Shown here one piece after another: positions 15,943 through 21,268 of a DNA stretch of 64,000 nucleotides. Positions within the stretch are counted from its first letter, which is position 1. Every line of letters starts with the position of its first letter. The DNA lies in NCBI RefSeq assembly GCF_030013595.1, contig NZ_CP122768.1. One strand, written 5' to 3'. The notes beneath the pieces are model-generated. The model was not told the origin of the DNA and ran no database searches. It was given only the letters and a program-made list of their open reading frames with translations. Made by a program: the position numbers and the translations under genes. This DNA is from Escherichia coli (GTDB lineage: Bacteria > Pseudomonadota > Gammaproteobacteria > Enterobacterales > Enterobacteriaceae).

Positions 15943-17325
15943 ATGGCTAGTTGGCAACAAGGAATCAACTCAGGCGGCTTTCTTGCTGGTATCGGTGGGC
16001 AAAACTCAAATGCGCCAAAGGCAAGTGATGTAAGTGAGGCGTTGGCCTATATTCGCCAGAACAACGAAATGGAGCGCTCAGGTCGCAATAACATCGGCCT
16101 TCAGGCGTTGCAGGGGCTTGGTAGTGTCGCTCAAACATATCAAGCCGCAAAGCAACAGGAATTCCAAAAAGAATATGCGGCAGCCATCCAGTCAGGTGAT
16201 CGGCAGCAGGTGCGAGATCTGATGACCAAATATCCTGGTCAATTAGAGAAGATTCAGTCTGGTATGAAGTGGGCAGACGAAGACCAGCGCAATTCTATCG
16301 GCACCTTAGCGGCTGGCGCACGCCTTGCGTCATCGTCTCCAGAAGCAATGCAATCATGGCTGCAAAACAACGCCAAGGAACTGGCGCGCGTCGGTGTTGA
16401 CCCTAACAGCGTTGCTCAGATGTATCAGCAAAACCCTTCAGGATTTGGTGAGTTTGTTGATCACCTTGGAATGGCTGCTCTTGGTCCGATTGATTACTTC
16501 AATGTTCAGGACAAGATGGCTGGTCGTGAAATTGACCGAGGCAAACTGGCAGAGACAATCCGCAGCAATCAGGCTGGCGAGGCGCTAACAGCACGAGGCC
16601 AGAACATCACGATGCGCGGTCAGGACTTATCTGCTTCTACTGCGCGACGAGGTCAGGATTTGGCAATGCAGCGAGCGTCAACAAGACGAATCGCTGGGAA
16701 TGATGAGCGTACAGTTCAGTTATCAGATGGCAGAACTGTAACGGTAGGCGGGAAGCTTCACGGCGCTGGGGCTAATGCGTTCTACGAAGGCATCGACAAC
16801 GAGGGGAATATGGTTCGCGTCCCTGCTGGCTCTATTGCCGCTCCGGCTACATCGGCAGCAAGCGCGCAGAATTACGCAATGAAGAAAGATCTTGATGCAA
16901 TTTCTGGTGCATCAATTGACGATCTTGGCTTCATGACTGGCATTACAGGCTCTTCAGGTTCTCCTGCTCTTGGTGCAGATATTCGTAGCCGTGCATCTGG
17001 TGGTGATCAGAGGAAACTATACAACGCTGCACAGCGAATCCAAGGAAAGATGCAGAATCAGGGCATTGCAGCAGCCAGAGACATGGGGGCATCCGGTATC
17101 AACACCGTTGCAGAAGCAAAGATGTATTTTCAAGGTATGCCACAGGTTGATTTCTCAAGCCCTGAAGCACTGCAACAATCAATGCGCGACATTCAGCAAT
17201 ATACCGACAATTACAACCAGCAATATAACGTTAATGTTGGTAAATCTCAGCGGCAGCAATCTCAACCTGCACAGGTATCACAGCCAGCAGCCAGCAGTAA
17301 CTTTTCTTCACTATGGGGTGATTAA
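15943..17325 (+). CDS. Ejection protein, P22 gp20-like
   Basis: 460 aa; position and composition as P22 gene 20. Confidence 0.7.
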
Positions 17326-19430
17326 TGGCTAAAGCATGGAAAGATGTTATCGCTTCTCCACAGTATCAGGCGTTAGCACCAGAACAAAAAGCGCAGGCTC
17401 AGGAGCAATACTTCAATGAAGTCGTGGCCCCGCAAGCCGGAGAAAGTGTAGAGCAGGCTAAGCAGGCTTTTTATGCTGCCTATCCACTACCATCAACGAA
17501 TGAAATAGACCGATACCAATCAGCAACTCAAAATATTCAACATACATCATCTGATAATTCTCTTGCGTCAGGGTATGCAAAGTTAGCTACTCAGCAAAGA
17601 GAGGGGCTTGAGCGTTCAGCAGAACAGGGAGCCAGTCTTGGGGCTGCGATGCGCGATGCTATAACAGGCGAAAGCCGAATGACTCCAGAGATGGAGAGAC
17701 TGCAAAATGTCGACCTTGCCCCAGAGTTAACCTCACTCAGCATGGATGCTCTAAAAGCTCGATGGTCTCAACTTTTCGGCTCTGACGCATCTCAGGAAAA
17801 GATTCTTCAGAGCATGGGAGCGAAATTAAGGCAGGATGAGAAGGGGAACACTATCGTTTCCCTGCCATCCGGTGATTATGCTCTGAACAAGCCGGGTTTA
17901 TCGCCGCAAGACGTGGCATCGTTTCTGGCTAATGCGCTGGCGTTTACACCAGCGGGCAGGGCTGGAACGGTGCTTGGTGCCATAGGAAAATCAGCAGCTA
18001 CAGATTTAGCACTACAGGGAGCCACCAGCCTTGCTGGTGGAGAAGATATTGATCCGTTACAAACGGTAATTTCTGCTGGCATTGGTGGTATTGGTAAGGG
18101 GCTGGAAAATACAGCGAGTGCGGTTTCGAGGGCTGTTCGTGGTGATATGTCGCCTGAAGCAAAGGCTGCTGTCGACTTTGCATCGGAAAGAAATCTGCCG
18201 TTAATGACCAGTGACATGCTGAAAGATAAAACCTTTATGCAGAGTCAGGCTCAGACATTAGGCGAAAGAGTTCCTTTTTTTGGAACCGGTAAGAATCGGC
18301 TGAATCAACAACAAGCACGAGAAAATTTAGTCAGAACATTTAGCGATGGTCTGGGTGGTATTTCTGATAAACAGCTTTATGAATCTGCGACTAAAGGGCA
18401 ACAAAAATTCATTGAGGCAGCAGGAAAGCGATATAACCGCATAATTGACGCTATGGGGGATACCCCTGTCGATCTCTCAAACACGGTAAAAGCTATCGAC
18501 AATCAGATTGCCGTGTTAAGCCGCCCGGGCAAATCTCAGGATAGAGCCGCGGTAAAAGTCTTGCAGCAATTTAAAGACGATATCACCAGCGGGCCAAATG
18601 ACCTGCGTCTGGCGAGGGAAAACAGAACCGATCTTCGAAAGCGATTTATGGCGTCATCTGACACTGTTGATAAAGATACGCTCCAGAAAGCCAGCGATAT
18701 TATCTACAAGGCATATACGGCGGATATGAAAAAAGCCGTAGCCAAAAATCTTGGAGCAGACGAAGCCATTAATATGGCAAGGGTTGATCGCTCATGGTCT
18801 AAATTCAATGACATGATGGGAAGAACGCGCGTTCAAAAGGCAATAGCCAGCGGCAAGGCCACGCCTGAGGATGTAACAAAACTCGTTTTTAGCCAAAGCC
18901 CATCAGAACGTTCTCAGCTTTACAGGCTTCTGGATGACAATGGTAGGCAAAACGCACGAGCAGCCATAGTTCAGAATGCTGTAGATAAGGCGACTGATCC
19001 GTCTGGAAATATCAGTGTTGAGAAGTTTATTAATGCGTTACACCGGAACAGGAAGCAATCAGCAACTTTCTTTAAAGGCGTACATGGAAAGGAACTGGAC
19101 GGCGTTATTAAATACCTCAACGATACAAGACACGCGGCAAAAGCGAACGTTCAAAACTTAAATGGTCAGCAGCTTTATGGATTGTTAGTTGGTGGTGGCA
19201 TCATAAACGCAGCAGTATTAGCGGGGATGCTAAAAACGGCTGCGTTTGTTGTTCCTGCTGCTGGTGCCGTAGGCGGAGCAGCGAAGGCATACGAAAGCCC
19301 TGTTATACGAAATGCCTTGTTACGTCTGGCAAATACGCCAAAAGGTAGCACAGCATATGACAGAGCGATCAGTACGGTCACACAATCGCTCACCAGAGTC
19401 GCACAGGCATCACAAAAAGAAGCTCAATAA
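17325..19430 (+). CDS. Ejection protein, P22 gp16-like (longer than I recall for P22)
   Basis: 701 aa; last gene of the rightward virion operon. Confidence 0.7.
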   Translation: MAKAWKDVIASPQYQALAPEQKAQAQEQYFNEVVAPQAGESVEQAKQAFYAAYPLPSTNEIDRYQSATQNIQHTSSDNSLASGYAKLATQQREGLERSAEQGASLGAAMRDAITGESRMTPEMERLQNVDLAPELTSLSMDALKARWSQLFGSDASQEKILQSMGAKLRQDEKGNTIVSLPSGDYALNKPGLSPQDVASFLANALAFTPAGRAGTVLGAIGKSAATDLALQGATSLAGGEDIDPLQTVISAGIGGIGKGLENTASAVSRAVRGDMSPEAKAAVDFASERNLPLMTSDMLKDKTFMQSQAQTLGERVPFFGTGKNRLNQQQARENLVRTFSDGLGGISDKQLYESATKGQQKFIEAAGKRYNRIIDAMGDTPVDLSNTVKAIDNQIAVLSRPGKSQDRAAVKVLQQFKDDITSGPNDLRLARENRTDLRKRFMASSDTVDKDTLQKASDIIYKAYTADMKKAVAKNLGADEAINMARVDRSWSKFNDMMGRTRVQKAIASGKATPEDVTKLVFSQSPSERSQLYRLLDDNGRQNARAAIVQNAVDKATDPSGNISVEKFINALHRNRKQSATFFKGVHGKELDGVIKYLNDTRHAAKANVQNLNGQQLYGLLVGGGIINAAVLAGMLKTAAFVVPAAGAVGGAAKAYESPVIRNALLRLANTPKGSTAYDRAISTVTQSLTRVAQASQKEAQ

Positions 19431-19448
19431 CTGGTTAGCCATGGATGG

Positions 19449-19637
19449 TTATTTCCTTAGCACATGAAACAATGTTTGCTTTAATTCCACCCATACAATT
19501 ATGACCACTATAGACAGACAAAAGAAACTGAATGCATTGGCATCACGATCGAAACCTTCTCCGGCACTAAATCCGTAAAAGGTCATAAAAAATATAAAAA
19601 TTGCGCACTTTGCAACGTTTACAAATTTTTTCTTCAC
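19449..19637 (-). CDS. Hypothetical small membrane protein (moron, antisense to late operon)
   Basis: 62 aa, two predicted hydrophobic helices, low GC; lies where P22 carries sieA. Confidence 0.4.
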   Translation of the reverse strand: MKKKFVNVAKCAIFIFFMTFYGFSAGEGFDRDANAFSFFCLSIVVIIVWVELKQTLFHVLRK

Positions 19638-20011
19638 ACCAACCTCCTTAGTTTTGCTCAGGATACCAGATGATACTTTATTGGTGGAGTGGTGTGTGAA
19701 AACGTGTCAACGACAAACCATCCACAACTTGGACGAATGATTTAGCAAAAAGTGCTATTTTTGGTGTTTAGTGTCATAGAAAAGTGAATAGCTCACTTTT
19801 CAACATTGCATGAAACTTGCAGGAAATGTGACATTACCTTATAGGTAATTTCGGCGAAAATGCAGTAAATGTGAAACGTAATGGTTTAAACATGTCGCTA
19901 AAGTGGTTGTAAGTTAGCCTCCGAAGGATTGCTGATAGCTTTGTTATAGTATTAAATGACATTTGACATAGTTGGATACTTAGCTGTGGCTATCAAGATG
20001 GAGGTGTGTTC

Positions 20012-20455
20012 ATGCTTACTTGTTTTGATGTCGCCGACTACTTCCTGTCGCGGTGTGACGAGGATAGCGGTGACACAATCTCTAATTTAAAATTACAAAA
20101 GCTTGTTTACTATGCTCAGGGGTTTTCATTGGCGTTGCTTGGTGAGCCTCTTTTTCAGAATAAGATGGAAGCTTGGATGCATGGCCCTGTTGTCCCTGAG
20201 CTTTATCGCCGTTATAAACAATATGGTAATGGAGCTATCCCTTCTCCAGAGTCTTTTGATGCTGAAAAATTCAGCGAAGAACAGTTAGAGCTATTAGAAG
20301 AAGTCTGGGATGTTTTTGGGCAATTTTCTGCCTGGAAACTGAGGAACATGACACACGAAGAGTCACCATGGAGATCAAACTATATTGAGGGTGTTGGTGG
20401 TTCTGAAATTAGCTCTAAGGAGATGGCAGAGTACTTTGCAACTCGGATTAACTAA
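20012..20455 (+). CDS. DUF4065 / Panacea-domain protein (putative antitoxin, PanA/SocA-like)
   Basis: Motif LKLQKLVYYAQGFSLALLGEPLF...EAWMHGPVVPELYRRYKQYG typical of DUF4065 phage-associated proteins; GGAGG 7 nt upstream of ATG 20012 (the ORF track uses GTG 20006). Confidence 0.65.
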   Translation: MLTCFDVADYFLSRCDEDSGDTISNLKLQKLVYYAQGFSLALLGEPLFQNKMEAWMHGPVVPELYRRYKQYGNGAIPSPESFDAEKFSEEQLELLEEVWDVFGQFSAWKLRNMTHEESPWRSNYIEGVGGSEISSKEMAEYFATRIN

Positions 20456-20459
20456 CGAG

Positions 20460-20879
20460 ATGGCAAGAAAATCTAAAAGGATTATCCCCCCTGCTGAATC
20501 TACAGGTAAGTTAAAGTTAGGGCCGCAGTCAGGGGGGAATTCAGATCAAAAGAAACCGAAATTTTCATTCTGTTACATCCAAAGCTCTCACTGCATAACG
20601 AAATGCCAAAAAGATGAGAAAGCTGGCTTAGCTGATAAATTATACAGATTAAGTCAACTAACATGGGCAGAGATTAAGCAGCAAGGTAGGCATAAGCTTG
20701 GATTTGAGAAGATTGCAAGGGGTGCAATTAAAGCTGGTATCCCCGGTCATATAACGGAAGACGTAGATCATTTCTTGGCTTTTAGATTTGATGATTTGAA
20801 AGCCATGGTTGGTTATCGTCTTGGATCGACATTTTTTGTTATATGGCTTGATAGAGAGTTCAACCTATACAAGCACTAA
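20460..20879 (+). CDS. Uncharacterised partner protein of the Panacea-like gene (candidate toxin/effector)
   Basis: ATG 4 nt after upstream stop; 139 aa, basic N-terminus, Cys cluster (CYIQSSHCITKC), C-terminal GYRLGSTFFVIWLDREFNLYKH weakly like RelE/ParE-type toxin C-termini; followed by strong terminator. Confidence 0.5.
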   Translation: MARKSKRIIPPAESTGKLKLGPQSGGNSDQKKPKFSFCYIQSSHCITKCQKDEKAGLADKLYRLSQLTWAEIKQQGRHKLGFEKIARGAIKAGIPGHITEDVDHFLAFRFDDLKAMVGYRLGSTFFVIWLDREFNLYKH

Positions 20880-20908
20880 TAAAACCCACCGTCAGGTGGG
20901 TTTTTTTG
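20879..20908. terminator. Strong, probably bidirectional intrinsic terminator
   Basis: Hairpin acccacc-gtca-ggtgggt flanked by an A-run upstream and a T-run downstream; sits between convergent genes. Confidence 0.8.
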
Positions 20909-20923
20909 TTGGAGATAAAATGG

Positions 20924-21127
20924 TTAACCAAATCGATCCTTAAAGCGTCTATCGCTGTTGCGTCTCTCCATTTTACTGTTGCAGTACGGACAAAGATGCT
21001 GTTTCTTTCCATCGATAGTCCATGTGAAGTACTTTTTCTTAAATCCAGCACCACAGATATCGCAACTTCTTGGTTTAAACATACTGGCTATGAAGATAAG
21101 AACAACAAATCCTATGATCCATTCCAT
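20924..21127 (-). CDS. Hypothetical small membrane-anchored zinc-ribbon protein
   Basis: 67 aa; N-terminal hydrophobic helix then CDICG...CPYC (CxxC...CxxC); low GC. Confidence 0.45.
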   Translation of the reverse strand: MEWIIGFVVLIFIASMFKPRSCDICGAGFKKKYFTWTIDGKKQHLCPYCNSKMERRNSDRRFKDRFG

Positions 21128-21268
21128 ATCATGTACCTGTTTTAACTTTATTTTTTGATTTTTAGGGATTAATCAGAAACTTTATCTTGCGATTAAGCAA
21201 AGCTACTAGCTAACAAAAGAGTGCGTATACAATCAATCGTTTCACATCAACCTCAACAAGGAGAAATC

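Follow-up and report, generated by a model that had tools for sequence, protein, structure and literature searches.

A probable composite control region with a cargo-independent upstream module before a Panacea-type cassette in a P22-like Escherichia coli prophage

The 64-kb stretch of Escherichia coli DNA analyzed here, referred to as the window, is a P22-like (Lederbergvirus-type) prophage, and the subject of this study is its 374-bp interval at positions 19638 to 20011, which lies between a leftward small membrane open reading frame (ORF) and a rightward two-gene operon that begins with a Panacea-domain gene (Table 1). A preliminary description had portrayed this stretch of about 370 bp as AT-rich, noncoding DNA separating the two, and this is borne out: the G+C content (GC) of the interval is 38.0%, compared to 49.5% for the whole window, no conserved or annotated ORF occurs there in relatives, and the interval travels with the operon. 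Morons are independent promoter-gene-terminator units inserted in late operons (the Juhala/Hendrix concept), and the moron DNA in which the interval lies (19350 to 22300) is likewise AT-rich, with a GC of 35 to 43%, compared to 45 to 54% in the ejection genes. The same arrangement was found in Emek, phiv205-1, E212, EC.P3, and about 81 complete E. coli genomes. We take the position of the interval, between a gene-16-like ejection gene and mnt/arc/ant, to be the sieA slot of P22.

Table 1. Positions of features in and around the interval
Feature	Position	Strand	Remarks
Ejection-protein genes	15943-17325 and 17325-19430		Upstream of the interval
Leftward 62-amino-acid small membrane ORF, phrog_21338	19449-19637	−	GTG start at 19637
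Expression signals of the leftward gene	19638-19690	−	Shine-Dalgarno (SD) sequence AAGGAGG 19649→19643; extended −10 TGGTATCCT 19668→19660; alternative −10 TATCAT 19675→19670
Portable cargo-independent upstream module, ~240 nt	19735-19975	+	nhmmer E-values 1e-37 to 1e-72 against the regions upstream of six two-gene cassettes
Near-consensus marbox GCACTTTTTGCTAAA, predicted MarA/SoxS/Rob site	19741-19755	−	Absent from the preliminary description
Perfect 9-bp inverted repeat GAAAAGTGA-ATAGC-TCACTTTTC	19779-19801		P=0.017; absent from the preliminary description
Direct repeat copy 1, TGCAGGAAATGTGA	19818-19831	+	P=0.004 for the pair
Direct repeat copy 2, TGCAGTAAATGTGA	19861-19876 (14-nt repeat itself 19861-19874)	+	Overlaps the weak marbox-like site
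Weak marbox-like site GCAGTAAATGTGAAA	19862-19876	+	13.0 bits
Candidate Panacea operon promoter	19929-19958	+	−35 TTGCTG 19929-19934; 18-nt spacer; −10-like TAAATG 19953-19958
Cargo-specific leader	19959-20011	+	Small inverted repeat TAGC-TGTG-GCTA 19981-19992; SD GGAGG
PanA-like antitoxin, Panacea/SocA domain, 147 amino acids	20012-20455	+	PF13274, E=1.8e-24
Putative PanT toxin, phrog_8366	20460-20879	+	Weak match to the C-terminus of NsnC
Rho-independent terminator closing the cassette	20881-20904	+	10-bp stem, then T-run; annotated terminator in phage Emek
Mnt/Arc-type repressor gene	21778-22029	−	Downstream of the interval
Arc-like gene	22107-22280		Downstream of the interval
ant-like ORF	22347-23276		Downstream of the interval
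Tailspike-like ORF with P22 N-terminus	23377-		Downstream of the interval

The left 37 to 53 bp of the interval (19638 to 19675 or 19690) read ATCATCTGGTATCCTGnnCAAAACTAAGGAGGTTGGTGTG on the minus strand and consist of an extended −10 (or TATCAT), a 15-nt leader, a strong SD sequence, and the GTG start of the leftward gene. These −10 signals are the top minus-strand hits of a weight-matrix scan (score, 8.9), and identical signals precede at least four different leftward ORF bodies. This is the only part of the interval common to prophages with other rightward cargos (YafO, P63C, JEP4, and repressor/Rha) and other leftward ORFs, and it was matched in 217 E. coli records. Around window positions 19600 to 19690, L001, L003, L004, L007, L008, and L009 have different leftward ORF bodies with the −10, leader, SD, GTG, and first codon or two in common. 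In several genomes, the Prokaryotic Genome Annotation Pipeline (PGAP) sets the start 21 nt downstream of the conserved GTG that follows the strong SD, and it has probably missed this codon.

To the right of these signals lies a module that recurs upstream of unrelated genes. Diverged PanA loci (L070 and L043, with 67 to 68% amino acid identity) retain conserved islands amid scrambled sequence, namely, GCAAAAAGTGCTATT, the TTACC/GGTAA arms of a palindrome, TCGnCGAAAA, ATTGCT-N16-TATTAAAT, and the ribosome-binding region. A family of such modules was built by scanning viral contigs for the first conserved island, followed by an nhmmer profile, and the part of the window that belongs to it is 19739 to 19974. 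In temperate phages of the P22-like and HK639-like groups, the module precedes at least six different toxin-antitoxin-like cassettes of two genes: PanA with phrog_8366 (the window, L028, L070, and L043); a 64-amino-acid protein with a Fic/Doc toxin (PF02661; L174 and relatives); HK639_17 with a YafO toxin (PF13957; phage HK639 and L099); a 190-amino-acid Panacea protein (PF13274) with a different partner (L173 and L189); a pair of 72 and 279 amino acids (L135); and a pair of 113 and 241 amino acids (L243). In the HK639-like phages, module and cassette are again part of the late region and on its strand, with the tape-measure/lipoprotein genes on one side and the minor tail genes on the other. 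A search of E. coli genomes with the HK639-like module gave no match.

The palindrome block was also used for an independent scan (TTACCTNNNNGGTAAYTTCKGCGAAA, with 21 specified bases), which returned 48 stretches; pooled with the known loci, there are 84 occurrences representing 27 distinct modules, whatever the cargo. Each of the 27 has a marbox-type element about 95 nt upstream of the palindrome block and ATTGCT or GTTGCT downstream of it. Within the P22-like lineage (about 80 E. coli genomes and phages), the interval is 94 to 99% identical, with divergence rising toward the genes. In a lambdoid hybrid, the sequence is retained from 19690 on along with the operon, and one genome (L005, E. 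coli ETEC6334, 2501-2729) matches 19638 to 19866 and lacks the Panacea operon. The region is, by sequence comparison, modular and independent of its cargo, and although moron control regions are a known kind of element, a long, exchangeable, marbox-headed module in front of at least six toxin-antitoxin cassettes is an unusual form of one. Past its junction, L005 resembles window DNA near 21300, as a deletion would give. In L006 / L019 (E. coli Z1323CEC0016), lambda-like tail-fibre genes run directly, at the equivalent of 19690, into the Panacea cassette, behind which mnt/arc/ant follow.

The terminator that closes the cassette is 94 to 98% conserved while the cassette genes diverge. Where PanA shows 71% amino acid identity and the second gene about 50% nucleotide identity, the interval and the terminator stay 94 to 100% identical, and in relatives the slot holds YafO, P63C, or repressor/Rha (JEP4 is also among the rightward cargos) or is empty. 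The recombination breakpoints were mapped and are sharp. Two PanA/partner alleles, with both partners belonging to phrog_8366, were seen between near-identical flanks (window 20012 to 20879 compared to L028-L042, L002, and L004), which suggests that one cassette replaced another through recombination in these flanks.

The preliminary description had listed promoter-like hexamers in the interval. TTGACA (19963 to 19968) and TATAGT (19945 to 19950) are indeed present, but TATAGT lies upstream of TTGACA, so the two are in the wrong order and do not pair into a promoter; TTGACA at 19963 also falls within a 10- to 12-nt segment that is missing from the diverged relatives L070 and L043. Applied to the single sequence, our own weight matrix gave a best plus-strand score of 6.1, compared to a mean best of 9.9 in shuffled sequence. 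Across the family, TTGCTN-N18-TAAAT(T/G/A) is the only promoter-like position conserved, occurring in 16/16 aligned modules (median score, 8.6; minimum, 5.5), and the ATTGCT and TATTAAAT islands are kept in the diverged relatives. In the lineage of the window, an extended −10, TGTTATAGT (19942 to 19950), overlaps this candidate promoter. The operon start is predicted to lie near 19957 to 19966, some 50 nt ahead of the ATG codon (20012), which follows an SD sequence (GGAGG, 20000 to 20004) at a distance of 7 nt. The sequence TAGCTGYGGCTATCAAGATGGAGGT is conserved only among PanA/phrog_8366 cassettes, and Fic/Doc cassettes carry other inverted repeats at the leader position.

We consider it reasonably probable that the interval is a composite control region of a prophage moron slot, in which a reused leftward start is joined to a cargo-independent module ending in a weak σ70 promoter. 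Under this reading, positions 19638 to 19690 would serve the leftward gene, with the same signals reused by several leftward ORFs, and 19735 to 19975 would recombine as a unit before diverse toxin-antitoxin-like cassettes. TTGCTG-N18-TAAATG, together with the overlapping extended −10, would express the Panacea operon in the lysogen, read-through from the late operon on the same strand would add to this expression during lytic growth, and the terminator at 20881 to 20904 would end the transcription unit. The upstream blocks (marbox, 9-bp inverted repeat, direct repeats, and palindrome block) are conserved whatever the cargo, and we infer that they serve as sites for factors that all of these prophages have in common, probably host factors, with MarA, SoxS, or Rob at the marbox, and not for the Panacea proteins.

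Several observations weigh against this reading. A program scan for σ70-like sites scoring at least 9/12 found none inside the interval, and the candidate promoter is weak in the window, where TAAATG has no conserved T at −7 and its score of 6.2 is at chance level for a single sequence. On neither strand does an acceptable −10 or core promoter stand at the distances from the marbox that define class I or class II sites (−41; −52 to −72). This reading does not account for the function of about 190 bp of conserved upstream sequence, and the high identity within the P22-like lineage may reflect recent shared ancestry and not selection.

As in other phage morons, the cassette sits between conserved late genes on the strand of the late operon, is absent from relatives, differs in base composition, and brings its own terminator along with a putative σ70 promoter. 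It differs in the unusual length of its upstream region (about 320 bp), which contains a conserved module common to at least six cargos in two phage groups, with a promoter that is predicted from sequence. If the composite reading is true, prophage toxin-antitoxin and abortive-infection cassettes would plug into an exchangeable control region and would not each be run by their own antitoxin, which would explain how cassettes are swapped freely between phages with proper expression kept. The inputs deciding toxin production would then be MarA, SoxS, or Rob plus a factor at the palindrome block.

A more specific proposal, which we regard as doubtful, is that MarA, SoxS, or Rob acting at 19741 to 19755, and perhaps at 19862 to 19876, tune the cassette or the leftward gene and thereby couple prophage genes to antibiotic, oxidative, and bile stress. 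On the minus strand, positions 19758 to 19740 read ATAGCACTTTTTGCTAAAT, which matches 19 of the 19 positions of AYnGCACnnWnnRYYAAAY, reportedly the marbox consensus of Martin et al. 1999, and no other perfect match to this consensus or to AYNGCACNNWNNRYYAAAY occurs within the window. It also agrees at 15/15 positions with the consensus GCAHWWWWTGYYAAA of Kettles et al. 2019. With a matrix built from the 33 MarA sites obtained by chromatin immunoprecipitation sequencing (ChIP-seq) in Sharma et al. 2017, it scores 17.9 bits, the best value in the window and one that would rank 6th of the 33; this score was reached in 1 of 20 shuffled 64-kb sequences. The site is identical at 14 of 15 positions to those of ypeC and yeeF, which bind MarA in vivo and in vitro, and at 17 of 20 to the marO marbox of K-12, and its orientation relative to the operon is reverse, as at PmarRAB. 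In fitting both forms of the consensus and scoring among the best validated sites, it resembles the marboxes, soxboxes, and robboxes of the marA/soxS/rob regulon (marRAB, ypeC, yeeF, and micF). Binding of MarA, SoxS, or Rob to this predicted marbox is likely. The H10407-specific MarA ChIP sites differ from it in sequence.

Relative to a σ70 promoter, class I marboxes lie in reverse orientation at −53 to −73 and class II marboxes in forward orientation at −30 to −42. Unlike the sites of the marA/soxS/rob regulon, the predicted marbox is in register with no core promoter of either class; about 215 bp separate it from the predicted start of the operon, and 85 to 95 bp from that of the leftward gene (near 19653 to 19663). 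Two further points argue against regulation from this site: in HK639-like modules, the second marbox half-site is degenerate (GCACTTTTTGCACAA, 10.6 bits), and E. coli has about 10,000 marbox-like sequences, most of them nonfunctional. On the other side, 17/36 mapped Salmonella targets likewise fall outside the class I and II rules, and at csgD, SoxS reportedly acts from −294. The marbox is kept in diverged modules, though these were partly selected by the same 15-mer. In other phage contigs, good promoters are preceded by the same 15-mer in reverse orientation at class I distances (about −51 and −61), and near-consensus marboxes stand at a class II position (−40) before 16 promoters of phage T1. 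The broadest form of the proposal, that the marbox-headed module places unrelated prophage cassettes (Panacea, Doc, YafO, and others) under common MarA/SoxS/Rob control and that T1-like lytic phages exploit the same factors, is one that we consider less likely again. If it were true, antibiotic, oxidative, or bile stress would retune prophage-borne toxins.

The marboxes of other phages form a pattern of their own. Phage T1 (L210, NC_005833) has 23 near-consensus marboxes of at least 15 bits, compared to 0 to 1 in shuffles (at positions such as 1453, 2272, 2833, 3538, 4347, 4867, 6534, 36447, 39979, 40311, and 47616). Sixteen of the 23 are followed 19 to 21 nt later by a good, often extended −10 with no −35, so that the marbox sits at −39 to −41 in forward orientation, and this layout is the canonical class II architecture of MarA/SoxS/Rob promoters. 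Other contigs of about 47 to 52 kb, presumed to be T1-like, show the same pattern, with variation largely at the spacer positions of the marbox. The T1 gene ST23 was considered as the source of a MarA-like factor of the phage itself and was rejected, as it is Cro-like and not AraC-like. Two groups of viral contigs carry the identical 15-mer in reverse orientation at canonical class I positions. In L116-L121, L124, L131, and L167-L170, it precedes TTGAAT-N15-TATACT and a LexA box by 7 bp, with its center at about −51; in L098, L133, L142, L175, L182, L185, and L187, it lies 15 bp upstream of TTGAAA-N16-GATAAT, with its center at about −61. A literature search found no paper linking marboxes with T1-like phages or prophage toxin-antitoxin modules, and a string search of the literature for the marbox 15-mer found nothing.

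We think it improbable that the sequence beyond a minimal promoter is functionless, conserved by recent sharing and serving as a homology arm for cassette exchange. The near identity of the interval across the P22-like lineage, the gradient of divergence toward the genes, and the sharp recombination breakpoints would all fit this explanation. However, diverged members of the family retain discrete blocks (the marbox, the palindrome block, TCGTCGAAC, ATTGCT, and TATTAAAT) amid scrambled sequence.

The preliminary description had singled out a perfect inverted repeat, TTACC-TTATA-GGTAA, and had suggested that it could be an autoregulatory operator. The repeat is found exactly at 19834 to 19848, and in the window its arms reach 7 bp (ATTACCT-TAT-AGGTAAT, 19833 to 19849); position 19849 is a C in every relative, and the arms are 6 bp there. 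The palindrome is part of a conserved block, TTACCT-N4-GGTAAYTTCKGCGAAA (19834 to 19859), and among relatives the spacer varies (TTATA, TTACA, TGAGG, and TTAGA) while the arms are conserved. The aaatgtga motifs of the same description correspond to two copies of AAATGTGA (19824 to 19831 and 19867 to 19874), each within a 14-nt direct repeat TGCAG[G/T]AAATGTGA, and the repeats are 43 bp apart. We gauged the chance occurrence of repeats with 2000 dinucleotide shuffles of the interval. A perfect inverted repeat with arms of at least 7 bp occurred in 23% of shuffles (P=0.23), and repeats with 5-bp arms, the form given in the preliminary description, occurred about four times per shuffle, so that the palindrome by itself is within chance expectation; the 9-bp and 7-bp inverted repeats occurred jointly in 0.25% of shuffles. 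No further copy of the palindrome, marbox, or direct-repeat motifs was found elsewhere in the window.

That the palindrome is an operator bound by PanA or a PanA-PanT complex, repressing the operon promoter as in type II toxin-antitoxin loci, is in our judgment very unlikely. There is a likeness to the operators of phd/doc, relBE, and ccdAB, in which an inverted repeat also lies upstream of an antitoxin-first two-gene operon; the palindrome is real, with arms conserved over a variable spacer; and more distant PanA/phrog_8366 loci (L045, L048, L049, and L071, for example) have inverted repeats near their own promoters. However, the repeat lies outside the core promoter: the −35 at 19929 begins 80 bp downstream of it, the distance to the conserved promoter-like site is about 105 to 125 bp, with no overlap, and the predicted start is about 115 bp away. 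The same block also precedes the Fic/Doc and YafO cassettes, the second Panacea pair, and the two pairs of unknown proteins and is not specific to any pair. Since the block is kept regardless of cargo, a Panacea-specific repressor cannot account for it. The antitoxin lacks a helix-turn-helix (HTH) and any other domain for binding DNA: its sole Pfam match is the Panacea domain, at residues 28 to 120 of 147, and NCBIfam gives only a SocA match below threshold. Some PanAs are thought to regulate transcription, but Kurata et al. 2022 (PMC8832971) infer this only for those with an N-terminal HTH (or PAD1). The reading of the interval as a control region is supported; the proposal of an operator at the palindrome is not. 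If the cassette is autoregulated, the leader at 19959 to 20011 would be a more plausible place for an operator. For annotation, the lesson is that a palindrome upstream of a toxin-antitoxin operon is not to be assumed to be its operator.

Other assignments for these blocks gave little. AAATGTGA is a perfect half-site for CRP, and a CRP site was rejected by eye, as the second half is missing at both copies. Inspection by eye of the interval revealed no match to LexA, Fnr, σ54, σ28, σE, NarL, CpxR, or IHF motifs, nor to the P22 Mnt, Arc, and c2 operators. One could speculate that a leftward internal promoter, TTCGCC-N16-TAATGT (−35 at 19858→19853 and −10 at 19836→19831), holds the palindrome in its spacer; this candidate scores only 3 to 7 and is missing from three family members. 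A minus-strand start may lie near 19824. At the site of the 9-bp inverted repeat (19779 to 19801), HK639-like modules have another inverted repeat, ATAGGC-N3-GCCTAT (A2 columns 58-74, L070 group), in which L105 carries a double change, ATAGGT/ACCTAT.

We consider it very unlikely that the interval encodes a minus-strand small protein (42 to 44 amino acids) or a small or leader RNA: an ORF of about 44 amino acids (…FAEVTPQVIVNYCHVLRR) is open in several HK639-like modules, a 42-amino-acid minus-strand ORF lies at 19834 to 19962, and fold z-scores are about −1.9 on both strands, but the small protein was rejected on account of two stop codons in the homologous frame of the window, a frameshift in L115, the lack of an ATG in L105 or L173, and the absence of 3-nt periodicity (0.80/0.80/0.83), and a structured RNA was rejected on the result of RNAalifold, which on 16 family members gave only 9 pairs and no compensatory change or covariation, while an Rfam search (E≤10, 19000 to 22500) had no match within the interval and equal z-scores on both strands indicate DNA-level repeats and not a strand-specific RNA.

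The cassette itself resembles the PanAT systems of Kurata et al. 2022 in that a Panacea-domain protein is followed by a conserved partner; most diverged loci that were examined have a partner of 134 to 149 amino acids after PanA, and this holds to an identity as low as about 46%. It differs in its partner, phrog_8366, which belongs to no Pfam family and was not seen among the toxin classes in excerpts of that paper, and in that this PanA has neither the N-terminal HTH nor the PAD1 that the paper ties to possible transcriptional control. Sequence searches with the putative toxin returned only weak matches (the NsnC C-terminus and the MAG6450 family), and a sequence search against the PDB returned none. 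By eye, its C-terminal motif (…FRFDDLKAMVGYRLGSTFFVIWLDREFNLYKH) resembles toxins of the RelE/ParE type.

Downstream of the cassette, the genes homologous to the neighbors listed in Table 1 carry Ant and tailspike/head-binding annotations in related records. Between the Arc-like gene and the ant-like ORF, a subthreshold Rfam match to the sar RNA lies at 22280 to 22346 on the minus strand (29.3 bits, with a gathering score of 43; E=0.005), which is the position at which P22 encodes sar.

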